From the IMG/VR virus record IMGVR_UViG_3300027819_000006: a stretch of 64,000 nucleotides of DNA; one strand, written 5' to 3'. The position numbers were made by a program, and so were the translations under genes. The notes below the pieces were generated by a model. The model saw nothing but the letters and a program-made list of their open reading frames with translations. It did no database searches and was not told the DNA's origin. The stretch comes from a virus (lineage: Duplodnaviria > Caudoviricetes). The stretch's first letter is position 1. The number at the start of each line of letters is the position of its first letter. Shown here in pieces: positions 27,453 through 54,518 of the stretch.

Positions 27453-28550
27453 AATGTGTTATTGTTCTTCGAATATCCATATTGCCAAGATGTATCAAAA
27501 TCATAAAAAGTATCTATCCATTTATCTACTTTCTGTTGAGATAGATCATCTTCTACTGTTAAATATCTTGTTGTAACTGCATTGAATGTTGGTTCTACTG
27601 AAAATGTTTTTTCTATTGAGTCTATTGCTGCGAGGCTTATATTTGGTTCAAGAAGCTGTATAAGTTCTTGATTTTGTTGAAGTGTTGCTATATTTTCTTC
27701 TGTTATGTACTTTTCATATCTCTTATTTATTTTGCTCTCCTGTTTAGCATATTGTACAATATCGTTGATCTCATATTTTCTTTCAGAAGACAGAAATGGA
27801 AAATCTTTCAACACTGTTTTCTCACCTACTCTTGGTATTCCTTTGATATTATCAGCATCTCCAGTAAAGCATTTTATTATGATATAATTCTGAGGATAAC
27901 ATTTAACATAATTAACTAAATAGTTGTATGTGATTATTTCACCATATGTTTTTAAATTATCCCCTTTCTTATTTAAAACTGGAGTTGCTTCTTTTGTTAA
28001 ATCTTTTCCAATTGCTATATTCCCATCTAATATGTCGTTTGCTAATATGTTTCTTTTTACTGGTCTCAACAATTTAGTATGCTTATCTATTAGCTGATAG
28101 TAATCTCTATCAGTAGATAGAATTATTTTTTCATAATTGCTACTTTTAAATACTTTGTTACAGCTATATGCTATGACATCATCTGCTTCTAGATAGTCTA
28201 TACTGAACTGGTAAAATGGAAATGAATTGACATATTTTTTCAATCTTATCAATTCACTTTTTATTGCTGCTCTTTCAACATCTGGATCAGTAAACATTTT
28301 TCTATTAAATCCTGAACTTTTGCGCCCTGCTTTATATTCTGCTAATAGTTTTCTTCTTCTTTCTGCTGAACCCTTGCCTTCCCAATAGAAACATACTATA
28401 TCAGGTTTTAATCTATTCATAACTCCTAATATGCTATCTATAGAAGTTATATATCCTCCTGTATGTTCACCATTATCATTACATAGAGAAGAAGCGCAAA
28501 AATTTCTAAAAAAAAAGGTTCATGCTATCAATTAACAGCACTGTTTTCAA
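27440..28550 (-). CDS. 5'-3' exonuclease / flap endonuclease (Pol I N-terminal type); frameshift in the A9 run at 28508-28516
   Basis: TTG start at 28550 gives MKTVLLIDSMNL; removing one T joins it to FFRNF...EADDVIA...STDRD...GDADNIKGIPRVGEKT. Confidence 0.85.
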
Positions 28551-29404
28551 TTATATTATTCTCCATTCTTTATGAATTTCATTATCCCAAATACGTATCA
28601 ATTTATATCCATACTTTTTTGCTAACTGGTTTTTATATTCATCATTTTTCATTATTTCTTGCCACATCTTAGGTCTACATTCTTCATATCTAGCATGCCA
28701 ACAACAACCATCTAATTCAATCAATGTATTATAATCAATTAAAAATCATAACATTTATTTTCTAATCTATATTGCTGTTTGAAATTTATGTTCATACTTT
28801 TTAATATTTCTTTAACTTCTAGTTCTGGCTTAGATATCGATACATTATGGTGAGTAGATAAATAATTCAATCTAGCATCTGACATTTTAAGCTTAGATGC
28901 TTCAGAATGTGCTCTTCCATAAGCAGCTGATAATTCACCAGTTAGGCCATACTGCGAATGATTTTCTCCTCTCAGATGATCATTACAGTACTGATCCCAT
29001 ACTTTAACTCCTTCAACTTCTCCGAATGTTTTAAATATAAAAGATTTTTGACTGTGATGTTTACTTCCTTTCTTCATATTAGCTTTATGCTCTTCAGTTT
29101 TCTCCTTTCCTTTCATTGAAAGACTGATTTTATTTCTAGAAAAATCAGAAGTTATTTCAGCTAATTCAAATTTTGTTAAATATTCAGCTGTTGTCATATT
29201 ATGTTTATCTAACAAGTGTTGAGCATTTACTCTTCTGAATTTTTCATGACATATTAAGCATTCGACAGTTCTTTCTATATCATTTATTTTATTTTCTGCT
29301 TTTATTTCAGCTTGACAATCTTTACATATTCCACATTTATTTGTTACTCCTAATGGTTTAATTTTACATACAGAGCATCTTTCATTATTCTTAAATCCTC
29401 TCAT
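28551..29404 (-). CDS. NUMOD3 + Vsr/DUF559 endonuclease (frameshift near 28741-28745)
   Basis: SKPELEV...CYDF, continuing in a shifted frame as LIDYNTLIELDGCCWH...LIRIWD...EWRII*. Confidence 0.8.
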
Positions 29405-29420
29405 CTTATTTCTCCAACTA

Positions 29421-29506
29421 ACAAACCAATTAGTGACGTCCTAATAGGTAGACCTACAGGCTAATTGGTTTGTAATATATTTATATTTAAGCCTATTAGA
29501 ACGTCA
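29421..29506 (-). promoter_or_regulatory. Structured two-stem leader, copy 1
   Basis: Inverted repeats 29421-29433/29461-29473 and 29434-29448/29492-29506, interleaved; U.G wobble on the minus strand. Confidence 0.8.
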
Positions 29507-29536
29507 TATATAAATATACTATGAGAAATAAAAGAA

Positions 29537-29590
29537 TTACAAATTATGAGAATCTACTAAAAGTATTGTTCTTTTTGAATTGTTGTCCAT
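29537..29590 (-). pseudogene. Truncated duplicate N-terminus of the 5'-3' exonuclease
   Basis: AAGGAG RBS then MDNNSKRTILLVDSHNL*; compare MKTVLLIDSMNL at 28550. Confidence 0.75.
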
Positions 29591-29649
29591 TAAACTCCTT
29601 GTATTTATAAATATCACTTTCAAAGCTTATAAGACATGAAGAACAAACT

Positions 29650-29689
29650 AAAATGGTAACCATTTTTAATTAAAATAGTTACTATTTTA
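29650..29689. repeat. Two tandem imperfect 17-19 bp palindromes
   Basis: AAAATGGTAACCATTTT and TAAAATAGTTACTATTTTA. Confidence 0.6.
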
Positions 29690-29757
29690 AAACAAATTGT
29701 CTATTCATTTATGACTGAGGATACTCATTTAAAAAATCAACATTATCAGATATTTCA

Positions 29758-30315
29758 TCAACTATAAATTTGATCACATGAATGTCCTCTAAATGTTTGA
29801 GCTTCTTTTTCATACCATTCTTCTGGATGAGTCAAAAAAGAATTTGGTATAGAAAATCTTCTATCTACTCCATATTCTTTATCTTCATACAGATAATCAA
29901 ATGCTTCTTTATAAGACAATCCTTCAGACAGCTTCTGATTAAAATCTTCTCTCAATGGAATACTAGAATTTGATTCACCCTTTACAGGTCTTGAAGCTAA
30001 TTTATCAGAATTTCCATCAATTTTTTCACCACATTCATAGCAATAAATACATTTATCTATTGTATTGATGAAAAAACTGACATTCAATTTGCTATATAGA
30101 TGATTAGCTATATCACTTGTTGCAGTGTACAAATATTTTCTACTTGTCCTTTTTATTGCTAGTGCTTGAAAATAGCATGATTCATAATGCCATTTTCTGT
30201 GAAGATCTCTAAGTTGGTAATCTTGTAGTTTCATAGTTTTAACAATTTCATAAAAATACCCATGCTCATCATAAATGGCATGCCAGAAGTGAATACTGAA
30301 AAGAATGTGATACAA
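29758..30315 (-). CDS. hypothetical protein
   Basis: 185-aa ORF with CxxCxxC. Confidence 0.5.
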   Translation of the reverse strand: MYHILFSIHFWHAIYDEHGYFYEIVKTMKLQDYQLRDLHRKWHYESCYFQALAIKRTSRKYLYTATSDIANHLYSKLNVSFFINTIDKCIYCYECGEKIDGNSDKLASRPVKGESNSSIPLREDFNQKLSEGLSYKEAFDYLYEDKEYGVDRRFSIPNSFLTHPEEWYEKEAQTFRGHSCDQIYS

Positions 30316-31082
30316 ATTATGGCTGAGCTTGTATCGCCAAAACGCATCTTGTTCAGTAATTAAATTAGCTTTCTATCTCTCAAACAATTTAGAAATAAAA
30401 TAATCGCTGGGCCAAATGCTGCATACACAAAAGAATAAATTAATCCCCATTGATGGCTCATGCTATAGAAAAATAACAGAGCATATAGAATAGCATTGAG
30501 AGCACAATAATATCCTGAGTACATTATTCAGCCCTTCATATCAAATGTAGACTCATACATAGTTCTCATCTTAGCATCTATGAAGCTCTGAGATGACCAT
30601 AGAACAAACTTAAGTCTTTGTTTATATAATCTATTTAACTTAGCTTTATAGTTGATCAGATGTACATCTTTGATCATCTAGTTAACTATGGTTAACATAG
30701 CTACAACTTCATTGTTATGCAAGAATACTTTGTAGTCAGAAATTGTTACATTTTCCATGTGCACATTGTTGTGATTCTTTACTCCAAAATCTAAAATTCC
30801 ATTCATTCTCTGTGTTAACTCTTCGTAGTTTTTACATTTCAGTTGCAGATAAAAAGTGCTGTTCATTTATTCTCCTTTCTGAGTGTTAATTTAGATCAAC
30901 TCCTACAACATCGACAGGATAACGTGCAATATTCACTACAACCTTCTTCCGAGGATTCAGTTTAGAAGACTTTGTCATCTGAACAATCTTCATGCCGTTG
31001 ACAATTGTTTGTGAGAAATGGATATTTGTAGCATTCATTTTTTTAAGTCTCCTATGTGTTAAGTTGTTGCATTCAATGGTTA

Positions 31083-31111
31083 AATATAAACAATCTATGT
31101 TCAAAAGTAAA
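31083..31111 (-). promoter_or_regulatory. sigma70-like early promoter
   Basis: TTTACT-17-TATATT with the conserved spacer ATAGATTGTT. Confidence 0.75.
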
Positions 31112-31117
31112 CAGTTT

Positions 31118-31567: not shown

Positions 31568-31818
31568 ATTAGATCCCTCTGATGTAGGTCTTCAATTTCT
31601 TCTCTTGTCAATCGTTTCAACACACATTTCGGAATGCCTTCTTTGCAGTTTCCATTCATATAGAAAGAAGCTTCTTTTAGGTAAGCTTTCTTGTCTATTA
31701 ATGGTAAGTCATCAAAACCTGTATATTCTGCTAACTCATTAATGCTCCACAGTCTATCTTCTCTTTTATCTTCTTCAAACATTATCTGAGCAAATCTTTG
31801 TACAGAAAGTTGAGACAT
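31564..31818 (-). CDS. hypothetical protein
   Basis: 84-aa ORF with a GGAG RBS. Confidence 0.55.
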   Translation of the reverse strand: MSQLSVQRFAQIMFEEDKREDRLWSINELAEYTGFDDLPLIDKKAYLKEASFYMNGNCKEGIPKCVLKRLTREEIEDLHQRDLI

Positions 31819-31833
31819 TCTGAAAATCTCCTT

Positions 31834-33179: not shown

Positions 33180-33200
33180 TATAAAACCCTTTAGATAAAT

Positions 33201-35318: not shown

Positions 35319-35912
35319 CTAAAATTGTTTAATATATGTGAATGATGCTCTTCTAAGTACTTTGTCAGCATAATTTGTAGTGCTAAATTTGTTTCCTTTA
35401 TTGTATCTCTCTAATGCTCTTACTAGATTATTGTTTTCTATTTTCAGACACCACTCTAAATGATTGATACCTGCTTTCAGATTTTCTTTTGTATTGTACA
35501 GATCATAACCTCTTACTCCATATATTTCAGCTGTAGCAGGTTTTACTTGCATCAGACCACGAGCATTTTTATTAGATTTACTATTTGTATTGAAATCTGA
35601 TTCTATGCTGATAATGCTGAAAACTATTGCAGGATTGATTTTCTTGTTTGTAGACATAAAATAGATGTATATAGCAAGAGTAGTATCAATTTTAAATTCT
35701 TTGGCATAAAGTTTAGATTTATTTATATGTTGTTCGAGTATTTTTGTTCTATGTTCTATGTCCTGTATTTTAGAGTTCAGTTCTGATATCTTTGTATTAT
35801 TTTTATCGATAATTTCTAATTTCTTTATGTAGCTCAAGCTACACACCATAAAGACAAAAATAATAAATACAGATAGAGAAATCTTTATAGTGAATAGAGC
35901 TTTAAACAGCAT
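35319..35912 (-). CDS. Membrane-anchored lytic transglycosylase (SLT)
   Basis: N-terminal TM helix and coiled coil; IESDF, ARGLMQV, ALERYNKG. Confidence 0.85.
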   Translation of the reverse strand: MLFKALFTIKISLSVFIIFVFMVCSLSYIKKLEIIDKNNTKISELNSKIQDIEHRTKILEQHINKSKLYAKEFKIDTTLAIYIYFMSTNKKINPAIVFSIISIESDFNTNSKSNKNARGLMQVKPATAEIYGVRGYDLYNTKENLKAGINHLEWCLKIENNNLVRALERYNKGNKFSTTNYADKVLRRASFTYIKQF

Positions 35913-36636
35913 TTTCTAGAGTAATAAAAAAATCTTTTTCTAAATTTAAATTAGAAGCATGACAAATTCCAGAGCCATTAACAATAGCTAAACGTCTAGC
36001 CTTTACATCAGAAATCCATTTAGGATTTGCAGTTTCTGCTCTTTTAATAGCTATTATAGTAAGTTTTTGAACTTCATCAGTTATATTCTGTTTTACAAAA
36101 GTTTGCAATATATCTAATTTCATTGTATCAGAAATTCCACCTTGCTGTGTTCTCAAATCGAAGAACATCGCTGCCGCTCTTTGAGACTTAACCTGGTATA
36201 TTGGCATCATAGCCAAAGCTTTATCAAATACATTTTTAGCAACTTTCAACTGAATTTGTTGCATTTCATTAGTCTGACCTAATTTATAGAATCTATCTTT
36301 CCATTCTGGTAATATTTTATTATTTGTTTGTATTGCAGCTGACCAAGCTACTTGTGATTGTATATCTGTTTTATTCAACATCTCTTTAAAAGTAGCCGAA
36401 CCATTGCCAAAAATATTATCTACTATAGCACTATGACTCTGAATCATTTCTTTTAAAAGTGGTTGTAATGATCCTTGTCCTAAACAAAATTGTAAACATC
36501 CAAATGAAAAACCTTGTCCGTCAAAATTTCCACTCATGCCACTATAACTTTCAAGTGGCATTTTACCTGTCTCTATAAAACTTGTAAGAGCTACACACTT
36601 CTCTAATAATGTAGAGTCTTTATTTAATCTATTCAT
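35902..36636 (-). CDS. Lysozyme-like peptidoglycan hydrolase (putative endolysin)
   Basis: FIE...YSGMSGNFDGQGFSFGCLQ pattern; adjacent to SLT; ATG at 36636 follows a GGAG RBS. Confidence 0.55.
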   Translation of the reverse strand: MNRLNKDSTLLEKCVALTSFIETGKMPLESYSGMSGNFDGQGFSFGCLQFCLGQGSLQPLLKEMIQSHSAIVDNIFGNGSATFKEMLNKTDIQSQVAWSAAIQTNNKILPEWKDRFYKLGQTNEMQQIQLKVAKNVFDKALAMMPIYQVKSQRAAAMFFDLRTQQGGISDTMKLDILQTFVKQNITDEVQKLTIIAIKRAETANPKWISDVKARRLAIVNGSGICHASNLNLEKDFFITLENAV

Positions 36637-37477
36637 ATAATTCTCCAAAGTTTATTAACATCACTTTCCCATATTCTAACTAATTTATAACCATATTTTT
36701 TAGCTAATTCATTTTTTAATTGATCTATTTCTATTTTTATTTTCTGAAATTCGTTTACTGGTCCATTTGGATAATATTCAGGATTACAATGATGATAATT
36801 GCCGTCTACTTCTACTAGTATATTAAAATCTTGTAAATAAAAATCATAATATCTGTTTTCGATCTTGAATTGATTTTCATACCTAATATTACTTTCTATA
36901 TTTTTTCTACTGATTCTTCTACTTTTGAAGTTCTTCTATGCCAATCTTTAGCTACTTTTTCTTTCCACATTTTTTCAGCTATTTCTATACCAAAACTTTT
37001 AGCCCAAAAATCTTTGACTGTTTTGCCATACATCACATTCTTTGAACCTTTTTTATCATCTGACATTTTTAGCAATCTATCATCTGTATTCTTATTTAAC
37101 CCGTCATTCCAGTTTTTACCACCATTTTCATAAAATAAAATCATGCCTGCAGAAGTTTTATTTCCATGTATTTTTACTCTCTCATCTGTTTCTTTTGTAA
37201 GACCTTTATTCCAAGCACCCGATTTGACAAAACCAATTTTTAAAATGCTATTACGACATCCATAACATCTATTATTAGGTCCTTTCACTTCTTTATTACA
37301 GTCATTTTCTATACATTTATATTTATCTAATTTCAGAATTTCAAACCAATATTTTTTAGAATTTACCTTATGTTTTGCTCCAACATGACCAAATAAAGCA
37401 TTATAGCTTTTGAAAACTTTCTTGCAAATAAAACATGATGGTAGTGGATTATTACTTTTATATTCACTTATATTCAA
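36633..37477 (-). CDS. Zn-finger/NUMOD3 + Vsr endonuclease (frameshift near 36900)
   Basis: WNKGLTKET and WNDGLNKNT repeats; the shifted frame continues YYDFYLQD..LVEVDGNYHH...LVRIWE...LWRII*. Confidence 0.8.
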
Positions 37478-37497
37478 TCTATTTCTCCTATAATAAA

Positions 37498-37583
37498 AGC
37501 CAAGCAATTGTAATCTACAATAGACTATGAATCTAGTAGTTGCTTGGCTCAAACTATTGGTTAAGTTTATTGTAGATTACAAT
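37498..37583 (-). promoter_or_regulatory. Structured two-stem leader, copy 2
   Basis: Inverted repeats 37498-37507/37540-37549 and 37507-37522/37568-37583. Confidence 0.75.
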
Positions 37584-37619
37584 ATAAATATATTTATAAG
37601 AGAAATAAATGCAAATCAC

Positions 37620-37769
37620 TCACTGCTGGATAGGGCCATACGAAATTCCCATGAGATCGAAATTTCCAGAAATGCAGCTGTAACACTCGGGTGGCATCTT
37701 ACTGTTTTCAATAAATCCAGTGAGACAGACTACCTTTTCTAATAGAGATGAATCTTTAGTTAATTTCAA
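37620..37769 (-). pseudogene. Truncated duplicate N-terminus of the lysozyme-like gene
   Basis: MKLTKDSSLLEKVVCLTGFIENSKMPPECYSCISGNFDLMGISYGPIQQ*; 29 of 48 residues identical to the start of 35902..36636. Confidence 0.9.
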
Positions 37770-37815
37770 ATTAACTCTCCATATTAATTGTTCAATATAA
37801 ATATATAATGCTAAT

Positions 37816-39880: not shown

Positions 39881-40048
39881 TTAAACATCAATTATGGACT
39901 CTAAATAGTAATTTGGTAACATATCTTTGTTCATTTTCAAAATATTGTTAAAACATGAATCTAAAATGTAAGTATTTGCATAATCTGTATCATTTCTTAT
40001 AGATCTACCGCAGCCTTGAAGTATCTCGACGATCGTCTTCCACTGATA
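39881..40048 (-). pseudogene. Orphan duplicate C-terminus of the DinG-like helicase
   Basis: YQWKTIVEILQGCGRSIRNDTDYANTYILDSCFNNILKMNKDMLPNYYLESIIDV*; 36 of 55 residues identical to the end of 41364..42977. Confidence 0.92.
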
Positions 40049-40052
40049 ATTG

Positions 40053-41237
40053 CTATTTGCAGCTGCTTTCTTTGTCAGAGGGATTATAAACTCCTCTGTG
40101 CAGAATGTTTAAAGCAGCATTATAGTCTGCATCTAAACTTAGACCGCATTCCAGACATAAAAATTTATCTAATTTCCTATTTTCTTTATGTTTGAATCCA
40201 CATGAAGAACATTCCTGACTAGTATAGAAAGAAGAAACTTTCTTCAACTCTATACCCTGTTCTTCACACATCGACTGTAATTTTGAAATAGTTTTTGTAT
40301 AAGACCAATATTGCATTTTATTATTCATTTTCTTAGAATATTTTGATTTGTGTTTTACATTTTTCAAATCTTCTAAAACAACAATGGAGTTATTATAAAA
40401 ATCAATTTTATTGCATATTTCATTGATCTTATTATCTTTAAAAATAAGATATTGCTTATAATTTATAGACCCTCGTTTCATATTTGATAATTTAGTATAC
40501 AATTGTTTCATTTCTACACCATAGACATCATTGTTTGAAGAAACTAGAAGCTTATCATACCCGATGTCAAAAGCAACAGCAGCTTGCTGTTGTTTCAGCA
40601 TTATTTCTTTTTCATAAATAAATGTAATATAAAAATTACCATGTATTTTTCTTAGCAATATCGTATTTTTTCTATTCCAATTTTTGTATTTTAAAGATTG
40701 TTTATGTTGTTTGATAGGTAGATTAATTTTAAAAGCTCTTCTTTTGCTTTTTAAATATGGTAATTTTATGCCTATAAATTCATCAAAATGAGATGAAGAT
40801 TTATCATAACTTATAATTCTATAATCCATATTTATGCATATGTTTTTTATATTGATTCGTATTCTTGAAAATATATGATTTAATCGAAGCTCTGAAAATC
40901 TTTTACTCAGAAATTTTAACTGTCTATTATTTTTAGCGAAATATTTATAGCATTTTTTATATCTACTATATCTTTTATTTCTAGCATATCTAATATTAGA
41001 GCGTATTATTTCAGAAGCTTGTTTATGTATTATCTGTTTCCATCTTGAGTGTATTATTATGTTTGAGCTAACAGATTCAAAAAATTTAGCACTATTTAAG
41101 TCTGGTTTTTGCTTCAATATTTGTTCTATATAAAATATAAGATCTGTTTTATAGTCTTCAAAAACTTGCTCTAGCTGCTCTATCTTATTCTTATTAGAAA
41201 ATTTTAAAATGTGAGTGCTGCTTCTTTTTATAATCAA
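40053..41237 (-). CDS. tnpB: TnpB / Cas12f-like RNA-guided nuclease
   Basis: RuvC-I AFDIG, RuvC-II VLEDL, Zn finger CSSC..CLEC, RuvC-III DADYNAALNI; no tnpA nearby. Confidence 0.9.
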   Translation of the reverse strand: MIIKRSSTHILKFSNKNKIEQLEQVFEDYKTDLIFYIEQILKQKPDLNSAKFFESVSSNIIIHSRWKQIIHKQASEIIRSNIRYARNKRYSRYKKCYKYFAKNNRQLKFLSKRFSELRLNHIFSRIRINIKNICINMDYRIISYDKSSSHFDEFIGIKLPYLKSKRRAFKINLPIKQHKQSLKYKNWNRKNTILLRKIHGNFYITFIYEKEIMLKQQQAAVAFDIGYDKLLVSSNNDVYGVEMKQLYTKLSNMKRGSINYKQYLIFKDNKINEICNKIDFYNNSIVVLEDLKNVKHKSKYSKKMNNKMQYWSYTKTISKLQSMCEEQGIELKKVSSFYTSQECSSCGFKHKENRKLDKFLCLECGLSLDADYNAALNILHRGVYNPSDKESSCK

Positions 41238-41257
41238 GTATATATCTCAAATAAAAA

Positions 41258-41334
41258 TGCCAAGTATTGGATCTTAAAAGACTATATGTCTAAAGATACT
41301 TGGCAGTTGATGTCAAGCCTTTTAAGATCCAATA
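41258..41334 (-). promoter_or_regulatory. Structured two-stem leader, copy 3 (in front of tnpB)
   Basis: Inverted repeats 41258-41267/41296-41305 and 41265-41280/41319-41334; inner AGAC-N5-GTCT hairpin. Confidence 0.8.
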
Positions 41335-41363
41335 ATAAATATGAAATATAGAATAATGCAATA

Positions 41364-42977
41364 CTAAGCATCTATTATGGCATCTAAAAAATATTTTGGA
41401 AATAAATTTTTGTTCATTTTTAGCATATTATCGAAACAGGAGTCTAGAATGTAAGTTTTAGCATAATCATTTTCACTCCTTATAGATCTACCATAAGACT
41501 GTAATATTTCTGCTACAGATTTCCATTGATACCAGTCAGGCATAGTTTTCAATCTTTTCTTTACTTTTGGTGATGCTAAATTTGGAAATGGCACTTTGAC
41601 TATAATCTGAAATCTAGACAAGTCGTCTTTCAAATCTATACCATTTGTCATAGACGGAGATACAATCACTGAAGCATTTGTTGATTCATAATGCTCTTGT
41701 AGCTTGTCTTCTCTGTCATCTATATCGTGAAATATCAATCTATCATTATCAATACTGTGCATAATGATATTAGATATTTCGTAGCTATTAGTATGAATTA
41801 TGCCTTTTTCATTTTTGTGCTTATTCAAAATTGTATTTATAACTTGAGGTAAGTCTTTATAAGTATCATGTTTCTCTCTGTATGACAGCTTACCGATATC
41901 TAAATTGTACACCAATCTATTCTTGACTTCAAATGGAGAATCTAGACTCATATATGCTACATCTTGTTTTAGACCCATGTAATTTTTGAAGAAATTTTTA
42001 TTAAGAATAGTACCAGACATGAATATTACATGATCATAGTTCTTCCATATCATTTCTAGATGATCTTTGCCCCAGACTAATTCTGTTTTCAACACAGTCA
42101 AACCATCTTTATCTTTCTCTTTATAAAATACCCATTTTTCTGTATTATCTTCAGATTCATTTATAAATCTGTTAAATTTACAAATTACTTTATCTAAAAA
42201 TGAATAATCTTTTAATATTTTCAATTTTACATTTTGCACTGCAGCTAACTTGCATTGTTCTTTCAATTCTTTGTATCTAATATTTAAAACTGGTATTAGA
42301 TCATCAGTTACAAATTTAATATAAGTTTCTATTGATCCAATTCTATCAAGCTTAGACAGAAGTCTTGCATTTTTTATACCCCATCTGTTCATAGAACTTC
42401 TAGATATTGTGGAAGAAATGAATTCACAGAACACTTCTTCAAATGAATGTGCTTCATCTACGAATAGAACATTAGAACATCTTTTTTCTATAAATGTTGG
42501 AACATATATTAAATATGATAAGTAGACATGAAAATTTGCTAAACCCACTTTAGCATTTAAAAATTCTTCATATGCAGCTTTAGATGGACAGAAACTGCAT
42601 TCTGTTTTATTGAGCTTGTTTAAATCTTGTCCATCATCACAAGTCAGATTCCATTTTTCGCAGTTATAGTTATTCTTACCTTTGATACTTCTGATGAAAT
42701 CAAAATCAGCAGTATATTGATTTTGTAGAATTTTAGTATTAGTTAGAATATCAAATTTAGCATTTTTATCTATATTCTCAACATACCACTTCATTGCCAT
42801 GACAGCAAAATAACTCTTACCACACCCTACAGAAACGTCTAATAATAAAAATTTCTTCTTAGAATTGATTGACTCTTTGAAGAAATTTAACATCTGGTCT
42901 TGTTGCTGTCTTGGATTATGCTTTAGAGTGATCATAGAAAATAAATGAATGCACCTATTATAGGAATTTTGCTCCAT
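41364..42977 (-). CDS. DinG/XPD-like SF2 helicase
   Basis: VGCGKS, VDEAH, FMSGT, IIHTNSY, GIDL, KVPFP, QSYGRSIR. Confidence 0.88.
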   Translation of the reverse strand: MEQNSYNRCIHLFSMITLKHNPRQQQDQMLNFFKESINSKKKFLLLDVSVGCGKSYFAVMAMKWYVENIDKNAKFDILTNTKILQNQYTADFDFIRSIKGKNNYNCEKWNLTCDDGQDLNKLNKTECSFCPSKAAYEEFLNAKVGLANFHVYLSYLIYVPTFIEKRCSNVLFVDEAHSFEEVFCEFISSTISRSSMNRWGIKNARLLSKLDRIGSIETYIKFVTDDLIPVLNIRYKELKEQCKLAAVQNVKLKILKDYSFLDKVICKFNRFINESEDNTEKWVFYKEKDKDGLTVLKTELVWGKDHLEMIWKNYDHVIFMSGTILNKNFFKNYMGLKQDVAYMSLDSPFEVKNRLVYNLDIGKLSYREKHDTYKDLPQVINTILNKHKNEKGIIHTNSYEISNIIMHSIDNDRLIFHDIDDREDKLQEHYESTNASVIVSPSMTNGIDLKDDLSRFQIIVKVPFPNLASPKVKKRLKTMPDWYQWKSVAEILQSYGRSIRSENDYAKTYILDSCFDNMLKMNKNLFPKYFLDAIIDA

Positions 42978-43961: not shown

Positions 43962-44252
43962 TTAATTTCCAGATGACAGCATCAAAGTTTCTACAGAACC
44001 TAAAATTCTACTAATCATTCTTTTGTGATTTTCACAAGTTCTGATTTTATGTCTTATAAGAGATAGTTCTCCTCTTTGCTTATTTTCTAATGCTTCTGAC
44101 ATTTCATTGTGCAGAACAGAAATGTTCAAAGACTCTCCATCGTACTTCTTCCTTAATTGTAGCAGAATTTGCTCATAAGTAATATTATCTTCAGTATGAT
44201 TCATATGTAGTAGTGTCTTATAAAAGCTGTGCATTAGTGATATCTGAGCCAT
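43962..44252 (-). CDS. hypothetical protein
   Basis: 96-aa ORF. Confidence 0.45.
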   Translation of the reverse strand: MAQISLMHSFYKTLLHMNHTEDNITYEQILLQLRKKYDGESLNISVLHNEMSEALENKQRGELSLIRHKIRTCENHKRMISRILGSVETLMLSSGN

Positions 44253-45333
44253 CTTTTGTCTCAGAAAATATGATCTTGTTCAATCCAGTCTCTACTTTTG
44301 TGATTCTTTCTAAATTCTCTAAAAATCTCTGTGGTGTTCTGTAAGTCTTCAATTCTCTGTTAAATACAAATCTATACGGATTCAGTTCTATTTCTCTTGG
44401 TATCTGCCTTAGCACATCCATTTTATTGAATATTACATGAGTGCCTCCAATAGATTTAACAGCATGAATAATCTTGTCTAGATTCATTACACCAATTTTT
44501 CTTGGTCTACCAGTAGTTTCACCAACTTCTTGACCGATGTCTCTGATTAGAGATTCCATTCCTTTTTTAAAGATATATTCAAATGGTTGTTCTTTGAAGC
44601 CAGAATAAGTAGAATATACTTTACAAACTGCATATACATTTCTCAATAAGCTAACTGGCATGTTAAAAGTAGTAAAAAAATGTCCGGGATGCAAATGTGA
44701 GCTAGTGCAATATGGATAGGAGTCAGAATCTATAGAAATTTGCATCCCTTGACTCCCTTCTAGCAAACAGTTACCAGAAAACTTAGTACATTTATTGTGG
44801 TAGAAATCATCTTGTTCCATGTATACATCTTTTATTGTAAATCTGTCATTATACTGTTCTGATTTACCTGATTCAAATTCTTGATCTTTTATATCTTTTA
44901 ATCTAATTCCTGTTCTATTATATTTGTCGACATAGCATGGACCAATGCCTTGTCTAGTAGTTCCTATTTTTATATCTTTTCCATCATCCTCCAAATTCTT
45001 ATCAGTTATAATATGACACTTTGAAGATATAAACATTCTATCTTTTAGATCAAATATATTATAAAATTTATCATATTCATCAAAAAATTTCTTCAAATTT
45101 ATACAGCAGCCGGGTCCAATGATCACGTTTGTGCTCTTATTATATATTCCCGAAGATAGAAGATGGGTTACATATTTCTGCCCATCTGCATATACAGAAT
45201 GTCCAGCATTGCTCCCACCTGAATATCGGATACAATTTTTATAGTTTTCTGTATCGATGAGTCTTTTAGAAATCTTTCCCTTCGATTCGTCGCCTTTGTC
45301 TATTCCTATAACTGCATCTACAAATTTTATCAT
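44218..45333 (-). CDS. purA: Adenylosuccinate synthetase
   Basis: GDESKGK, GGSNAGH, GTTRQGIGPCY, EGSQG, TTGRPR, NKMDVL. Confidence 0.9.
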   Translation of the reverse strand: MIKFVDAVIGIDKGDESKGKISKRLIDTENYKNCIRYSGGSNAGHSVYADGQKYVTHLLSSGIYNKSTNVIIGPGCCINLKKFFDEYDKFYNIFDLKDRMFISSKCHIITDKNLEDDGKDIKIGTTRQGIGPCYVDKYNRTGIRLKDIKDQEFESGKSEQYNDRFTIKDVYMEQDDFYHNKCTKFSGNCLLEGSQGMQISIDSDSYPYCTSSHLHPGHFFTTFNMPVSLLRNVYAVCKVYSTYSGFKEQPFEYIFKKGMESLIRDIGQEVGETTGRPRKIGVMNLDKIIHAVKSIGGTHVIFNKMDVLRQIPREIELNPYRFVFNRELKTYRTPQRFLENLERITKVETGLNKIIFSETKDGSDITNAQLL

Positions 45334-46320
45334 AAAATCTTCAATTCTTTTAATTTATTTTTATCCCATAGTTCGATTGGAATTTTGATACACTCCTGTA
45401 ATAGTGCAGGATATTTTTCACTACCATCAAACCATCCTTTAACCTCTATTATTTTTAATATTTCCTTCTATATCATAAACTATAAAATCTGGTAAATAAC
45501 TTCTATCTCTTATTATACATATTCTAAATTGTTCATATTTCCAAATAATGTTATTATTGTCGAAATATTTAGCGACTTTTGCTTCCCAAGTAGATTTAAA
45601 ACATATACCATTATAATATATTTTCTTTCCATGAGCTCTTGGTTTGCCAAATCTGGGATTTTTAATCCCTTTGGCCACTCCCTTTGATTTTCTTGTATTG
45701 GAAACACTATTTGCTAATTTTATCAGCCTAACATCTGTTTCTTTAGTTAGCCCTTTTTGCCAAGATGTCCAGCCATTAGCTACTAATTCTTTTTTTCTAT
45801 CAGACATTCTTTTTTTAGTTTCTTCAGAATGATTTCTACCATAAAAAGAAGCATTCTCGCCTGTACAGGAACCTGTCAATATTTTAGTCATGCATCCTTT
45901 TTCATGCCATTCTCTAAATTTTTCATCTGTATCTTTAGTCTTTCCTTTTTGCCAATTCACTATATTTCCTAAAGCATACCCCTCTTTTATAACTTTCGAC
46001 ATATTGCTTCTATATTCTTCAGAAAATATTCGATGAGAATTTCTACAACCATAACACATATTGCACTCTGCTTTAACTTCATTAAGACATCCTTGAACAG
46101 CGCAATAATATGTTAAAGAAGCTACACATTCAGAGCATCTATCTCCTCTATATCCAGTTACTTTGCTTAATATATCTCCACAAGTAGTGCATCTTTTTCT
46201 GTTTTTATTATATTCTGCTGCTTCACATTCTTTGCAAAATTTACTTTTTCTTCTACCATCATAAATATTGTTGCATATATCAAAATTTGAACATTTCGTT
46301 ACTCTCATCTTCTTCTCCAA
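45330..46320 (-). CDS. Cys-rich/NUMOD3 + PD-(D/E)XK endonuclease (frameshift near 45445)
   Basis: WQKGLTKET repeats; FKSTWE...YLPDF, then a shifted frame IIEVKGWF. Confidence 0.78.
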
Positions 46321-46321
46321 C

Positions 46322-46415
46322 TAGTAAAGCCGATTAGTATCATCCTGATAGGGTATCCTACTGGCTAATCGGCTTTACTACAAAGTATATTTATGATTAA
46401 CCTATCAGAATGATA
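46322..46415 (-). promoter_or_regulatory. Structured two-stem leader, copy 4
   Basis: Inverted repeats 46322-46337/46365-46380 and 46338-46352/46401-46415; covaries with copy 1. Confidence 0.85.
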
Positions 46416-46449
46416 ATATAAATATACTCTTGGAGAAAAATAGTACATT

Positions 46450-46508
46450 TTAAGGTTGTAACTTTGCCTCATCGCCTGCCTCCCCTCATAGACGCAATCT
46501 ACATACAT
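46450..46508 (-). pseudogene. Truncated duplicate N-terminus of purA
   Basis: MYVDCVYEG, then after a 1-nt slip AGDEAKLQP*; compare MIKFVDAVIGIDKGDESKGK. Confidence 0.65.
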
Positions 46509-49501: not shown

Positions 49502-49503
49502 AG

Positions 49504-49851: not shown

Positions 49852-49860
49852 TCAATGCTC

Positions 49861-51034
49861 CTAAAATGTTAATTGCTGTGATTTGTTGTTTATAATACAA
49901 TTTAAATCTTCTTTAAATAAAATATGATATATTTTAGATTCTTTTTCATATAAACGCAAAAAATTTGCTATTTTTACTTTGCTGTTTTCATATGTATAAA
50001 TTGATTTAACTTCTTCTATTCTTATCAAATTATCATTTTCGTCATATATGAAAAAATCGGGAGTATATGTAGTTCCATCTAGTTTATAAGTTATTTCTTC
50101 ATATTTTGATATAGAATCTAAAAATTGAGCTCTTTCTAGTTCATAAGATGATTTTAAATATGTTTTGTTATATATTTTGTCCATCTATCAGTATTAGTGT
50201 ATTTATCATGCCACATTAATAAAGCTGTTTTCAAACCATATTTTTCAATCCAAACATCGAAAACAGATTTACCATACATTCCATTATTTTTACCATAAGT
50301 TGGGCAAGTTTCGCCTGTCAGACCTAATCTGTACGGAATAATTTCTCCTGAAGCATATTTTATTTTTAATGCGTCAGAAATATTTTTTTACATTCATCTG
50401 ATAGAGGAATTCCAAAACTGTGTGATAATTCTCCAGTAAGACCTTTATTCCACTGAATTCTGCCATTAGCAAATTGATCTTTTAACGTTATAGATACATT
50501 TTCTGACTGTTTTCTAACTCCGTCGCTAGTTTCTTTAGTGAGACCAGTATTCCACTGAATTCTTTCATTGGCAAACTGATATTTTAAAGTTTCTGAAATC
50601 TGCTGCTTCTCTTCTTCAGTGTGTAATCTTCCAAAATTATGGCATAGTTCTCCAGTCAATCCATAATTCCATGCATTTTCTCCTCTAGTTTTTTCATTTC
50701 TGTCTTCCCATCTCCCACTTCCTTCTTCTTCTCCATATTTTTCTATTATTACATTTTTTATTCCTCTACAAAAGACACTATGTTCTGACATATATTCAGA
50801 TAATTTGTAGTTATTACACTTCCGACATAGTTCTGCACTTCTGTTCTTTTTGTTTCCACATTTGCAAAATTTTAAAGATAGATAATACGATAAATTAGTG
50901 TTATTTTTTATTTCGATACTGAGATCTTCTATTTTATTAATGTTTTTATCTATTTTATAGTCACATTCTTTACAAACATTAGTAATATTGTTGAGCGATA
51001 ATTTGTTTGTGTTGCATATGCTGCATAATTTCAA
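49861..51034 (-). pseudogene. NUMOD3 + PD-(D/E)XK endonuclease with several frameshifts
   Basis: WNxGLT(G/K)E repeats in 50366..51034; LKSSYE...YTPDF...IEEVK in 49861..50184; shifted frames link the two. Confidence 0.75.
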
Positions 51035-51046
51035 GTTATTTCTCCA

Positions 51047-51128
51047 AATAATAAAGCCTATAGTAATTGGTACAGAAATAATATTGCTATTAAGTCTTCA
51101 CTATAGGCTTTATTATTTCTGTACCAAT
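51047..51128 (-). promoter_or_regulatory. Structured two-stem leader, copy 5
   Basis: Inverted repeats 51047-51064/51100-51117 and 51066-51080/51114-51128. Confidence 0.75.
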
Positions 51129-51146
51129 ATAAATATATTAAGAAAA

Positions 51147-51908
51147 TTAAAATACAAGCTGTTGCGATTTATTAGGATTTCCCAAGCTTGTACTTGTACT
51201 TGAGATACTGCGAGAAATGAATGCACACAATTTAGCCAATTTACCAGGACTAGCCTCACCAACATCAATGTACTGAGTCAAATTAGCTTCATCTTTAAAC
51301 TTATTCAGCACGTAACTACAAATTCCATCTTGAGTGTTAATTCCTACTAGAACTGTGATCATTGACTCAAGCTTCTCTTCTTTTGTCACTTTTGCAACCT
51401 GATCTCTAATCATAGATGGAGTAACTCTTGAAGCATTATCTACACCATCAGTGATAATAAACATAATAGCATTTACAGTATAGTCTTGATCAGATAGCAA
51501 CTGTCCATATTTTACAGTGGAAGCTACTGCATCAAATGTGGCATCATATAGAGAAGTCATTCCTCCGCAGTTGAAAGGAAGATAATCTTTATCTACATCA
51601 ATTTCATTTAAATTCTTGAATCCATGAATCTCCTTTACTCCAATTCCAGAATTGAATTGGAGAGCTCGTACAAGAATATTTTCAGACTTTGGTGCTTTCT
51701 TGCAAGAATTGACTGCACTTTTAAGTGCATCTAAAAGATTGTTTGCAAATGGTTCTACTGAACCTGTAATATCTGTTACGATTGATACAAGAGTATATTC
51801 TGTTTCTGTTAGAGCATCAGGTCTGACAGCAGAGAATGTAAATGATCCATCTGCAGCTGTGAAATTCTGCATGCTACCATCTGCATTTTGATTAAGGAAC
51901 TTAGGCAT
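51147..51908 (-). CDS. von Willebrand factor A domain protein (TerY-like)
   Basis: DITGSV (MIDAS-like), GGMTSLYDA, FIITDG. Confidence 0.85.
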   Translation of the reverse strand: MPKFLNQNADGSMQNFTAADGSFTFSAVRPDALTETEYTLVSIVTDITGSVEPFANNLLDALKSAVNSCKKAPKSENILVRALQFNSGIGVKEIHGFKNLNEIDVDKDYLPFNCGGMTSLYDATFDAVASTVKYGQLLSDQDYTVNAIMFIITDGVDNASRVTPSMIRDQVAKVTKEEKLESMITVLVGINTQDGICSYVLNKFKDEANLTQYIDVGEASPGKLAKLCAFISRSISSTSTSLGNPNKSQQLVF

Positions 51909-52284
51909 TTTGTTCTTCTCCTTTTTGTTTATCTGCTAGTTCAATAGCTTTTAAATAGCGGTTAATAGCTTTATCTGAGTCTAATAAATATGAAGTATGT
52001 GAATCTTTGTCATATTGAATAGACACCGCTTCTACTTCATATTTATTAACTTTTACTGCTCCATCATTCGATGAATAATCATTTAAATTCTTATTCAAGA
52101 CTGTCATAGCATACAAATTCAAAGGATCTAGTCTACCATTTTTATTTGTAAATGTTCCAACTAGTAGTTTTTCATGTTTAGGATCAAGATTTTGTGGAAG
52201 TCTGTCATCCCTAACATCTTCTAGAAACTTGATCACCTTATTCCAATTCTTGTGTAAATTCTTTACTTTCATTTTTAGCTCCAA
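51901..52284 (-). CDS. hypothetical protein (paralog of next ORF)
   Basis: EKLLVGT..NKN...DP..L and YLL...KAI.R.LK shared with 52275..52607. Confidence 0.6.
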   Translation of the reverse strand: MELKMKVKNLHKNWNKVIKFLEDVRDDRLPQNLDPKHEKLLVGTFTNKNGRLDPLNLYAMTVLNKNLNDYSSNDGAVKVNKYEVEAVSIQYDKDSHTSYLLDSDKAINRYLKAIELADKQKGEEQNA

Positions 52285-52607
52285 TCATTTTTAAAAGAAT
52301 CTATTACTTTTAACATTCTCTTGATAGCTTTTTCTCTTGGTAATAGATAGGGCATCTTTGTCATACCATCATAATCATGGAACATACTTGAAAAATCAAA
52401 TTCAAAATCTACTATATGAAATGATTCATTTCTAATGTCTTCATAACTATATCTCATCTTTTCATGAAGAAATAGACCAATTGGATCTACTTTATTGTTT
52501 TTATTGCACCATGTCCCTACAAGAAGTTTTTCTGGCATAGAATCATCATTCTGAACTTTTACAAGAAAATTTCTGAATTGCTTTAGAGTTACTCTTTTAG
52601 ATTTCAT
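52275..52607 (-). CDS. hypothetical protein (paralog of previous ORF)
   Basis: Same shared motifs. Confidence 0.6.
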   Translation of the reverse strand: MKSKRVTLKQFRNFLVKVQNDDSMPEKLLVGTWCNKNNKVDPIGLFLHEKMRYSYEDIRNESFHIVDFEFDFSSMFHDYDGMTKMPYLLPREKAIKRMLKVIDSFKNDWS

Positions 52608-52619
52608 TTTTGTATCTTT

Positions 52620-53411
52620 CTATTTTAGAAATTTATCATGAGTAGTTAAATTAAGTCCTCTTTTTACTAGTGAATCTAAAACTTTATTTGTATTATCCTC
52701 AAATCCAGGAATAATAGAACAACAATCTTTCACTAGATGTATTTTTTGAATATTCTCTTCTCCAAAATTGGCACAAATGTCGATCAAACTATACAATACG
52801 CAATGTGATAAAGCTTCGCCATAGAACCCAATTACATCGGCTCTCTGTAAAGTCTCAATTAATCTAACATTTAATTGAGTTGAGGGATCGTTTGAGTCAG
52901 GGACATCTGCAACCAACACACCAAAATGTTCCGTCGTGTAGTTGCTCCCCTTGGTAACGTAATCTACCATAGCAACTCCTTTTTCCCATTCAAGAAGCTG
53001 TTCTGCTACTGGAGAGATAACTGTAGCTCCGACGGACCCTATGAGGCAATGCGGTGGCCAAATACAAAGTTTATATCTGCCATTCTTTGCCAATGTCTCA
53101 GTATATGTTAGCATCTTTTGTGTTTCAGCAGGATTTGAAGGTTTCCATACTCCATTTTTTACATCTTCATAAGAAATAATAGTAAATGGATTCGGATGAT
53201 TTCCTTTTGAGTCTACCCAGAAAATAGGATGTGCTACGTCGTAGAAATGATGAGTATCTAGCGTTACATGGTAGTCATCTACTCTGTCTCGAATTCTTTC
53301 CATCATTTTAACCATTCTCAAAACATCTTGATCAGCACCAGGAACAAATAGCTCTCCACTTGGTGAACAAAATGATACCTGTGTGTCGATCATTAAACAT
53401 TCTATTTTCAT
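52620..53411 (-). CDS. pncA: Nicotinamidase (isochorismatase family)
   Basis: IDTQVSF, TLDTH, WPPHC, TKG, GEALSHCV. Confidence 0.85.
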   Translation of the reverse strand: MKIECLMIDTQVSFCSPSGELFVPGADQDVLRMVKMMERIRDRVDDYHVTLDTHHFYDVAHPIFWVDSKGNHPNPFTIISYEDVKNGVWKPSNPAETQKMLTYTETLAKNGRYKLCIWPPHCLIGSVGATVISPVAEQLLEWEKGVAMVDYVTKGSNYTTEHFGVLVADVPDSNDPSTQLNVRLIETLQRADVIGFYGEALSHCVLYSLIDICANFGEENIQKIHLVKDCCSIIPGFEDNTNKVLDSLVKRGLNLTTHDKFLK

Positions 53412-54295
53412 ATTAGTCTCCATATTAATTTAACTTCATCTTCCCAGACTCTAACTATTCTATCTATAACCATTGTTTTTAGCAACATTATTTTTATTAT
53501 GATCACTGGCAATTCTCTCTTTCCAGTTAAATGGTTTTTATATCCCTCTCTACAATGCCAATAATTTCCATCTACTTCTATAAGTATATTATAATCAATT
53601 AATAAAAAATCATAAACACTATACCTATTAGTGATTTCATCTAATATAAAGAATTGTTTTTTAAAATTTATGTTACACTCTATAAGCAGCTGCTCCATTT
53701 CTAATTCACATTTAGTAGTTTGATATTTTCGATTGCATAAAGATTTAGCAGCAGATAAAGATCTTTTAGCTTTTTCTTCTTCACCCATTACTCTACCTTT
53801 AGTTGTAATACCTCCATCTTGATAAAATTTTTTCAAACCCTCTGATATTTTATTTTTTGTTTCATCAGAACTAATTCTTTCAAAATTCCAGTGTAATTCA
53901 CCAGTTAACCCTTTATTAAATTGTGTTTCAGATATCTTATTGTTTCTTTCTATCCACATCTGCTCAGCTATTTCTATTCCATGTTTTAGAATCCAAATAT
54001 CTAAAACAGATTTTTCAAAAGTTCCATTTCTAGATCCAGAACTTGCACACTTTCTACATCTTACTCCTGCACTCTTTACTTGATTTTCACAATTTTCTTC
54101 TATACAATAATATATACGATGTTTAGGACATTTAAATTCTCCTTTTAAAATTGATTTTTGATATACTCTAGAAGTGCAGTTTTCTTCTGAACAATACGTG
54201 CTATTTACTGCTGAATGATATCCACAAGTGTTTTGGCCTTTTTCAACAGCACGTACACTAGCTTCATTATTGCATTTATCAACGACACATTTCAC
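53408..54295 (-). CDS. Cys-rich/NUMOD3 + Vsr endonuclease
   Basis: GTG start after GGAG; TKCE, YDFLLID, IEVDGNYWH, RVWE, LIWRLI*; compensating indels near 53460-53520. Confidence 0.8.
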   Translation of the reverse strand: MKCVVDKCNNEASVRAVEKGQNTCGYHSAVNSTYCSEENCTSRVYQKSILKGEFKCPKHRIYYCIEENCENQVKSAGVRCRKCASSGSRNGTFEKSVLDIWILKHGIEIAEQMWIERNNKISETQFNKGLTGELHWNFERISSDETKNKISEGLKKFYQDGGITTKGRVMGEEEKAKRSLSAAKSLCNRKYQTTKCELEMEQLLIECNINFKKQFFILDEITNRYSVYDFLLIDYNILIEVDGNYWHCREGYKNHLTGKRELPVIIIKIMLLKTMVIDRIVRVWEDEVKLIWRLI

Positions 54296-54317
54296 TTTTC
54301 TTCTCCATAAATAAATA

Positions 54318-54398
54318 TGCCAAGCTGTGTACTCCAAAATAGACTGTTAAGTCTAAAGGCAGCTTGGCAATAGATTTATGAATCTATTTTGGAGTACA
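54318..54398 (-). promoter_or_regulatory. Structured two-stem leader, copy 6
   Basis: Inverted repeats 54318-54327/54360-54369 and 54328-54343/54383-54398; inner TAGAC-N6-GTCTA hairpin. Confidence 0.82.
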
Positions 54399-54518
54399 AT
54401 ATAAATATATTTGACAGAGAAGAAAAGACACTACATTGTAAAACTCCTTTTATTTGGTTGGTTGTTTTGATCTGTCTATTCTATATAATATTTGAGTATA
54501 GTTTTATAAACTCTATTT

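Follow-up and report, generated by a model that had tools for sequence, protein, structure and literature searches.

Why should a nuclease gene in a phage genome lie between a full-length gene and a second, diverged copy of one end of that same gene? This question is raised by a stretch of 64,000 nucleotides (IMG/VR record IMGVR_UViG_3300027819_000006; Duplodnaviria, Caudoviricetes), referred to throughout as the window, which is contained in a phage contig of ~272 kb and 29% GC from groundwater metagenomes and belongs to an uncultured jumbo phage. Six nuclease genes are located between 28.5 and 54.5 kb of the window, and in all six of the corresponding cassettes the nuclease adjoins a full-length target gene, with stop and start codons overlapping at loci 1, 2, 4 and 6 and with the cassette starting 9-15 bases past the stop of the target at loci 3 and 5. 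Nearly all window genes, and every cassette, target and displaced gene end (stub), are on the minus strand. An earlier inspection of these letters alone (hereafter the sequence-only reading) had proposed that each nuclease brings with it a diverged, recoded end of its target gene and that the stub is the old end. This core proposal is supported by the way in which the two copies have diverged at synonymous and nonsynonymous sites, by a cassette-free relative and by features that the stub shares with the empty allele of that relative. We therefore regard the cassettes as probable end-replacement homing elements, residing in a jumbo phage, of the type represented by the WHO elements of yeasts and the mobile open reading frames (ORFs) of fungal mitochondria.

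Of five duplicated gene ends that had been claimed, those of a helicase and of a gene encoding a 244-aa protein are clear. The helicase tails (39881-40048 versus 41364-41531) are identical at 36/54 amino acids (E 8e-24) and the N-termini of the 244-aa gene (37620-37769 versus 36487-36636) are 62% identical over 47 aa (E 4.5e-14). For the short duplicates, frameshift-aware alignments were scored against 1500 random windows of the same phage. By this measure the N-terminus of a FEN/5'-3' exonuclease (stub versus the resident N-terminus at 28550; score 40, null maximum 32) and the C-terminus of a 253-aa protein (49861-49887 versus 51147-51173; 7/8 aa plus stop, score 35, null maximum 27) are significant (p < 0.001 for each), and that of PurA is only probable (p about 0.007). 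The two long duplicates also reveal how the copies diverged, as the proportions of synonymous (pS) and nonsynonymous (pN) differences are 0.72 and 0.16 for the helicase and 0.88 and 0.26 for the 244-aa gene. Synonymous sites are thus saturated while amino acids are conserved, which indicates that each copy evolved under purifying selection, as part of a functional gene in a lineage of its own.

The most direct evidence for what the insertion event involved is provided by locus 2, which contains the following features:

37620..37805, minus strand: stub, consisting of a native promoter (37794-37805), ribosome-binding site, TTG start and 49 codons of the 244-aa gene
36633..37619, minus strand: cassette, consisting of a promoter (37581-37592), leader and a nuclease with C2H2 zinc fingers and a Vsr/DUF559 domain, starting at TTG 37477
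35902..36636, minus strand: 244-aa target gene, in which codons 1-50 (36487-36636) are a recoded, AT-rich N-terminus

The stop codon of the locus 2 nuclease overlaps the target ATG at 36636. The name lysozyme that had been given to the target gene is not confirmed as such, but homologues of the 244-aa protein do carry peptidoglycan-binding domains. Its closest homologue (P0242; 65% amino acid identity) is encoded on short contigs from a related phage, L093-L096, which derive from SRR32696699, SRR32696695 and ERZ1292616. In the relative the downstream order is the same (homologue of the 244-aa gene, SLT, a 143-aa gene and a 146-aa gene) and there is no nuclease gene 5' of the homologue. BLASTN aligns L093 1963-2146 with the stub and its promoter (window 37804-37621; 69%) and L093 2148-4295 with the gene body and the downstream genes (window 36486-34312; 72%). 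These alignments are adjacent in L093 and therefore a stub-type N-terminus and the gene body are contiguous in the relative. What the window has in addition is an insert of 1134 bases (36487-37620) made up of the nuclease cassette and the 50 recoded codons. The expectation that a cassette-free relative would have relic and body of the gene joined is therefore borne out at locus 2.

The empty allele also resembles the stub in its details. Its codon count is that of the stub, the resident copy having one extra codon, and both the empty allele and the stub encode LTK and GISYGP where the resident copy encodes LNK and GFSFGC. Additionally, the GC content at third codon positions (GC3) of codons 37-49 is 0.69 in L093 and 0.58 in the stub, versus 0.08 in the resident copy and 0.19 for the whole L093 gene. 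The corresponding 13-codon GC3-rich patch (L093 2109-2147; window 37623-37660) is located at the motif where the window cassette inserted. A foreign origin of this patch, from a GC-richer phage, was considered and dropped, as the cassette-free L093 has the same patch in an AT-rich gene.

A similar pattern is present at locus 3, where the duplicated end is the C-terminus of the target:

41364..42977, minus strand: DinG/Rad3-like helicase, in which the last 55 codons (41367-41531, from an invariant WY.WK) are the resident tail copy
40049..41345, minus strand: cassette, consisting of a promoter-like motif plus interleaved-stem leader (41238-41345) and TnpB (40053-41237)
39881..40048, minus strand: stub, consisting of 55 helicase C-terminal codons plus stop, located 4 bases past the tnpB stop

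The WY.WK at the junction is invariant in the helicase family. In the 13 codons of the stub next to the junction GC3 is 0.69, whereas it is 0.15 for the resident copy and averages 0.19 over the genome, and no comparable local GC3 excess is present in helicase relatives. Base identity between stub and resident copy is 56% in these 13 codons versus 74-83% in the other 42. Taking loci 2 and 3 together, the simplest reading of these sequences would be that naive alleles carry a distinctive GC-rich site at which the cassette-linked allele has been recoded, although for the helicase the patch may instead be foreign DNA from a GC-richer phage. The helicase stub has a cysteine at a position that is tyrosine in 117/117 homologues, and thus has begun to decay. 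When compared with 119 homologues both tails are about equally distant, with the nearest being <=49% identical, so that this comparison does not distinguish which tail is foreign.

Two side observations concern the helicase sequences. The start of the stub (40010-40048) contains a perfect 10-base palindrome, GACGATCGTC, that includes a PvuI-type CGATCG; it is absent from the resident copy and is unusual for a genome of 29% GC. Some helicase homologues (P0090, P0105, P0110 and P0114) are ~651 aa in length, with the extra sequence being at the Walker A site in P0114, the sole one aligned, and P0090 has an intein Pfam match. An intein in such homologues was considered as the source of the duplication and rejected, since the Walker A site, a separate point of invasion in this gene family, is not the duplication site.

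At locus 1 it is the start of the target gene that is duplicated:

29537..29590, minus strand: stub, consisting of its own ribosome-binding site, ATG, 17 FEN/5'-3' exonuclease N-terminal codons (MDNNSKRTILLVDSHNL) and stop
28551..29518, minus strand: cassette, consisting of a promoter-like TATATTTATATA (29507-29518), an interleaved-stem leader and a zinc-finger/NUMOD3 plus Vsr/DUF559-like nuclease
27440..28550, minus strand: FEN gene with a recoded N-terminus, TTG start at 28550, MKTVLLIDSMNLFF

The stub ends ...LLVDSHNL followed by a stop, its resident counterpart being MKTVLLIDSMNL..., and it thus breaks off at the conserved LLVDSxNL. The last codons of the locus 1 nuclease include the ribosome-binding site of FEN, whose start is at 28550. 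In the rebuilt gene a T9 run near 28510 (28505-28520) contains one T too many, 14 codons past the start and exactly at the point where the stub breaks off; this extra base is either an inactivating repair scar or a site that is corrected by slippage. The match to Pfam 5_3_exonuc_N, in the ORF at 27440-28420, begins only at position 46 of the profile, and Pfam does not recognise the short FEN and PurA stubs.

The remaining three loci contain shorter or less certain stubs:

46450..46508, minus strand: locus 4, probable PurA N-terminus stub, MYVDCV..GDEAK, with a one-base frameshift needed, GC 0.46
45330..46426, minus strand: locus 4 cassette, consisting of a promoter (46415-46426), leader and a NUMOD3 plus PDF...EVKG nuclease, ATG at 46308
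44218..45333, minus strand: purA (adenylosuccinate synthetase; PF00709, E 1.3e-66), its start coupled to the nuclease stop
51147..51908, minus strand: locus 5 target, 253-aa protein of the function-unknown family phrog_7371, C-terminus ...NPNKSQQLVF
49861..51137, minus strand: locus 5 cassette, consisting of a promoter (51126-51137), leader and a NUMOD3 plus PDF...EEVK nuclease with at least two frameshifts
53408..54449, minus strand: locus 6, consisting of an orphan AGGAG (54444-54448), ATG (54434-54436) and TAG, followed by a promoter (54398-54409), leader and a Vsr/DUF559-like nuclease, GTG at 54295

The PurA stub ends at a conserved GDExK, and the stop of the locus 4 nuclease overlaps the purA ATG at 45333. 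At locus 5 the stub (49861-49887) forms the last nine codons of the nuclease frame (NNKSQQLTF plus stop) and is in frame with the nuclease. The two tails read NKSQQLVF plus stop (resident) and NKSQQLTF plus stop (stub), and the stop of the stub abuts the ribosome-binding site of the next gene. An intact paralogue of this nuclease on contig L005 (436-1584), from the same phage, ends differently after ILFKEDL. The designation vWA that had been given to the 253-aa protein is not confirmed by Pfam or PHROGs. At locus 6 the nuclease stop overlaps the ATG (53411) of the next gene, and the nuclease frame stays open with an internal stretch that is out of frame as a result of two compensating frameshifts.

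The cassettes have more in common than their position. A TATATTTATATT-type promoter motif is present in 6/6 cassettes: four have it exactly, one differs at a single base and the TnpB cassette has a looser version. Just 3' of the motif a leader starts. The leaders of all six cassettes are homologous and can be aligned, so that the common layout of promoter, two-stem leader, ribosome-binding site and nuclease described by the sequence-only reading stands. In every leader an inverted repeat A (15-19 bp) is interleaved with a second one, B (10-16 bp), so that the arms run A5'-B5'-A3'-B3', with A3' directly adjoining B3' or overlapping it slightly and with a GGAG-type ribosome-binding site 3' of them. 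The stem-arm sequences vary among cassettes with pairing retained. The interleaved-stem leader is also found on TnpB and nuclease genes of L005 and on the L093 TnpB, and between the window TnpB and the L093 copy the leader is 87-90% identical, as compared with ~72-78% for the ORF. The native start of the locus 2 stub (37794) is preceded by a TATATTTATATT-type motif as well, and the promoter type therefore belongs to the repertoire of the phage itself and is not specific to cassettes. Having their own promoter, leader and ribosome-binding site, the cassette nuclease genes do not reside within an intron or intein, and no intron, ribozyme or omega-RNA family of Rfam matched in the window at E up to 1. 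Stem B was not called as a terminator by a simple terminator scan. By analogy with the homing endonuclease genes of phage T4, which have a late promoter and RNA structure, we infer that the leader may act as a control on expression.

The nucleases themselves fall into several groups. Cassettes 1, 2 and 6 encode proteins in which zinc-finger/NUMOD3 motifs are joined to a Vsr/DUF559 domain at the C-terminus. The cassette 2 domain (25.3 bits) and two window paralogues, at 273-944 and 34425-34862, exceed the PF04480 cut-off of 20.6 (the three scores being 24.1, 27.0 and 25.3 bits); the cassette 1 fragment is below it (15.5 bits) and cassette 6 is assigned through its similarity to family copies above the cut-off. 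The paralogue at 273-944 additionally matches PDB 3r3p (I-Bth0305I; E 0.006). Cassettes 4 and 5 encode NUMOD3 repeats with a distinct "PDF...E(V/E)VK" nuclease domain, for which there is a match (E 9e-7) to a PHROG family of annotated Holliday-junction resolvases along with weak matches to TnsA/NgoBV, and cassette 3 encodes a TnpB of 394 aa (PF07282, E 6.7e-20). Vsr/DUF559 nucleases and the PD-(D/E)XK nucleases with the PDF...EVK motif both have the restriction-endonuclease-like fold, while TnpB has the RuvC fold. The three catalytic families that had been called unrelated are thus better described as Vsr-like and PD-(D/E)XK-like branches of a single fold, together with the unrelated TnpB. These identities (DUF559/Vsr, NUMOD3, the 3r3p match and TnpB) fit homing enzymes.

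Two further members of the Vsr/DUF559 family in the window are intact. The one at 273-1040 encodes a nuclease of 223 aa with NUMOD3 repeats and is located directly 5' of a RuvC-like gene, with stop and start overlapping and with a hairpin over the ribosome-binding site of the nuclease; an ATG-ATA-TTT-TAG that overlaps the stop of the upstream gene may represent a stub, three codons in length, of the RuvC-like start (MIL...). The second, at 34425-34862, is a free-standing DUF559 nuclease of 145 aa without DNA-binding repeats. Its homologue at L093 3752-4192 is 79% identical with the position kept, and it may be domesticated.

The TnpB of locus 3 requires separate consideration. It has D, E and D in AFDIG, VLEDL and LDADYN, which we read as putative RuvC catalytic residues. 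In the relative L092 a serine recombinase (resolvase-type tnpA) overlaps tnpB, and the lineage is therefore of IS607 type; there is no transposase gene (tnpA) in the window, and the left end of locus 3 is without ~50 bases that a sister TnpB copy has 5' of the promoter. At the 3' end the window, L005 and L093 copies share a conserved hairpin, AGAGGAG...CCCTCT, which is followed by ...CAAAGAAA, a variable stretch and a terminal AATTAT. Between hairpin and stub at locus 3 there are 18 bases unrelated to the helicase, of which the window has no second copy. The element end meets the stub directly (...AATTAT|CAGTGGAAG), so that a guide-like flank would be the GC-rich start of the stub. The resident, AT-recoded tail has about 7 mismatches to the stub in the 16 candidate guide bases (stub type CAGTGGAAGACGATCG, resident type CAATGGAAATCTGTAG). 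With a z-score of -1.25 the 3' region gives no fold signal, and no target-adjacent motif was established. Two other TnpB copies, one in the window (59614-60882, region 59450-61100) and one on L005 (3700-5290), appear to interrupt small ORFs without a rebuilt end, the L005 copy having the same promoter and leader. TnpB cassettes thus also insert destructively. It is tentatively possible that locus 3 represents a transposase-free, RNA-guided form of end-replacement homing, in which the first 16-20 bases of the stub (CAGTGGAAGACGATCG..., GC-rich) would be the omega-RNA guide, naive helicase alleles would be cut just before motif VI and the recoded tail would be immune.

A single mechanism could connect the architecture of the cassettes, the mode of divergence of the copies, the one empty allele and the recoding concentrated beside the junctions, all of which are apparent in the sequences at hand. 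The unit would be a nuclease gene with a phage-type promoter and structured leader, adjoining a full-length target gene whose near end is a recoded copy. During mixed infection the nuclease would cut the naive allele near the end of the gene, in a conserved motif, and the break would be repaired from the cassette-bearing genome, with the gene body serving as one homology arm and the stub plus the sequence beyond it as the other. Repair would copy in the nuclease gene along with the resistant end and displace the old end as an untranslated stub, with no intron or intein required. In this scheme we infer cleavage, discrimination between alleles, the route of repair and the role of the stub as a homology arm. 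The boundary of the stub, which the sequence-only reading took to mark the point of cleavage, would be a candidate cut site.

Several observations weigh against this interpretation. Each of the five protein endonuclease cassettes is frameshifted, in several cases within a short A or T run (by -1 in the T stretch 28741-28745 of the locus 1 nuclease, and at ~36900-36935 in locus 2, ~45455-45470 in locus 4, 50184-50400 and 53440-53560), leaving that of TnpB as the sole intact nuclease frame of the six. Since all protein endonuclease genes are frameshifted the cassettes look fixed and decaying, and with the rebuilt FEN gene frameshifted as well present-day activity is doubtful, although frameshifts in A or T runs may instead represent regulated slippage. 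The same nuclease families occur elsewhere in the phage in intergenic positions or splitting small genes, with no rebuilt end. Two of the stubs are weak, as the frameshift-aware score of the PurA stub is 28 and falls below significance without the frameshift, and the locus 6 candidate is only an orphan AGGAG-N8-ATG-TAG. An empty-site relative is available for locus 2 only and is distant (65% at the amino acid level, 69-72% in bases), and over 49 codons the base identity of its N-terminus is a modest ~63% to the stub versus ~56% to the resident copy. No empty alleles of the other loci were found in the relatives and contigs searched, and no naive helicase allele was found in an IMG/VR scan or in a metagenome collection. 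Finally, a second C-terminus was present in 0/79 of the helicase-relative loci screened (79/80 matched). With respect to these searches, no useful relatives were returned when IMG/VR was scanned with TnpB, the helicase and the two large stubs, and a degenerate DNA pattern of the helicase stub had no match in the metagenome collection, from which this phage itself is apparently absent.

Other explanations of the duplicated ends must be weighed against end-replacement homing. The duplicated segments are <1.5 kb apart and the data are metagenome assemblies, which would be compatible with a local tandem duplication followed by drift within one genome or with a chimera of two strains. This is highly improbable and largely refuted. 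Synonymous saturation with a conserved protein excludes a local duplication that then drifted, as an untranslated copy would not have kept its amino acids, and the empty-site relative defines a clean insertion. As for a chimera, three independent assemblies (ENA megahit, Logan and JGI) agree 100% with the window over the stretches 31364-52935, 41268-52935 and 39034-45719, the junctions at loci 1, 2 and 4 are each spanned by single contigs and that of locus 3 by JGI and ENA contigs, and depth is even. Those frameshifts that the overlapping assemblies cover are identical in them. Because independent assemblies agree and contigs span the junctions, both duplicates and frameshifts are real, and the concern attached to the original proposal, that the duplicates might be assembly chimeras, is thereby removed. 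Contigs of four groundwater/sediment runs mapped on 28400-48390 are likewise from the same phage, with no empty alleles seen, and the contig joints in this mapping all trace to paralogous repeats.

An alternative is that the stubs are passive scars, left when ordinary free-standing homing nucleases, located next to the target gene in a donor as T4 Seg and Mob are, crossed into a phage that was too diverged for homologous repair on one side and the far end was joined illegitimately, with no later role for the stub and no propagating unit involved. The low base identity of the copies (only 55-73%), which makes them a poor substrate for homologous repair, would fit this explanation, as would stub lengths that range from 3 to 168 bases, the one-base scar at the FEN junction, the 0/79 count among helicase relatives and the presence of the same nuclease families without stubs. 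Illegitimate joining does not readily account for the same geometry at five or six loci, for a precise overlap of nuclease stop and target start at four of them, or for a helicase stub that is 74-83% identical in its distal part versus 56% next to the junction, a gradient that resembles site-focused recoding or co-conversion and not a random join. We consider passive scars unlikely. A further explanation applies to the helicase duplication alone, which may not have been made by TnpB. In this case an IS607-type element would have been moved by a recombinase or by recombination between copies, one located 3' of a complete helicase and another inside the helicase of a different lineage, with a crossover within the element. 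The IS607 type of the lineage, the two other copies in the phage that merely split small ORFs, the ATTAT-like words at the left flank and right end of three TnpB copies and the 18-base non-helicase stretch between 3' hairpin and stub are all in keeping with such recombination. The window has no transposase gene, however, the left end lacks the ~50 bases of the sister copy, the layout is the same as that of the protein-nuclease cassettes and divergence is concentrated exactly in the would-be guide target. On balance this origin of the helicase duplication is a possibility that we view with some doubt, and end-replacement homing remains the probable explanation for the cassettes as a group.

Two features outside the cassettes were also observed. 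A conserved promoter block of ~55 bases (TTGTTTAC...TTGTTTATATTTAAACATTACAAAATGGTT) precedes several genes (31082-31130, 34307-34360, 39825-39886 and 61120-61175), and three of the sites, near 31.1, 34.3 and 39.8 kb, are break points of short-read contigs. An RlaP-domain gene that is one ORF of 296 aa in L096 (182-1072) is split into several short ORFs in the window (38772-39640), and the window gene is therefore probably broken.

These results suggest that phages, too, undergo homing without introns or inteins, as known from the nuclei of yeasts and the mitochondria of fungi. Its targets in phages would be central replication and metabolism genes, hit at either end by at least two types of protein nuclease and possibly by an RNA-guided one. 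Such a process would account in concrete terms for the short orphan fragments of genes and the mosaic gene ends that phage genomes contain, and the allele pairs, with a GC-rich naive patch opposite an AT-recoded resident one, point to likely target sites of the nucleases. A promoter and leader common to unrelated nucleases suggests a shared control device for selfish nucleases in this phage lineage. If the RNA-guided form of locus 3 is true, TnpB would be a transposase-free homing nuclease that rebuilds an essential gene and uses the same promoter-leader module as the protein homing endonucleases.

How, then, do the cassettes relate to known systems? The sequence-only reading had presented them as a candidate new mobile system. 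They are not a new category, as the mechanism is the same in kind as that published for WHO elements (PMC7282813) and for mitochondrial mobile ORFs (PMC3630166). WHO elements, described in Torulaspora and Lachancea (Coughlan et al. 2020, eLife; PMC7282813), consist of a nuclease gene beside a full-length target with no splicing; integration replaces the gene end with a resistant copy, and the old 3' fragment is left as a recombination site or homology arm. The phage cassettes share with them the nuclease beside a full-length gene, the old end left beyond the nuclease and the absence of splicing. WHO nucleases are intein-derived LAGLIDADG proteins with zinc fingers that act on the 3' end only of nuclear yeast FBA1 (PMC7282813), whereas the cassettes are in a phage, have Vsr/DUF559, other PD-(D/E)XK and TnpB nucleases, involve both 5' and 3' ends and affect several genes per genome, with no tandem clusters seen here. 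In the fungal mitochondrial mobile ORFs (Allomyces atp6; Glomus atp6, atp9, cox2 and nad3) a foreign C-terminus and an endonuclease ORF have been inserted, and the native C-terminus left downstream matches relatives better than the inserted copy does (PMC3630166); partial duplications of cob and atp6 have also been reported in fungal mitochondria (PMC6279837). Some of these ORFs are in phase with the gene, a situation also present at locus 5. Their nucleases are of LAGLIDADG or GIY-YIG type and, as far as the available text of those reports extends, only C-terminal cases are described; in the phage N-terminal cases, which are translationally coupled, occur too, and a promoter and leader are shared.

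The free-standing Seg and Mob endonucleases of T4 adjoin the gene that is cleaved, co-convert flanking markers and have a late-type promoter with RNA structure (PMC2988022). They are located cleanly between genes and the review describes no duplicated gene end, whereas here ends are duplicated at four or five loci. A literature search for a phage description of the end-replacement design found none, which is not proof of absence. At the level of the enzymes, the Vsr/DUF559 nucleases resemble I-Bth0305I and the Vsr-like (EDxHD) group in a catalytic domain that matches PDB 3r3p and Pfam DUF559/Vsr and in their modular DNA-binding repeats; the 3r3p entry names a mobile intron protein, whereas the window genes are free-standing with no Rfam intron. 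The TnpB cassette resembles TnpB/omega-RNA homing (IS200/IS605 and IS607; reviewed in PMC13565253) in having putative RuvC catalytic residues and a conserved 3' end followed by a variable flank, and relatives of the window TnpB pair with a serine recombinase as in IS607 elements. It differs from IS200/IS605/IS607 TnpB in having neither a transposase nor a standard left end and in carrying a replacement gene tail, which we have not found described for TnpB. What is new here is the occurrence of this design at many loci in one genome, its use at both gene ends, a leader common to all of the cassettes and a version that contains TnpB.

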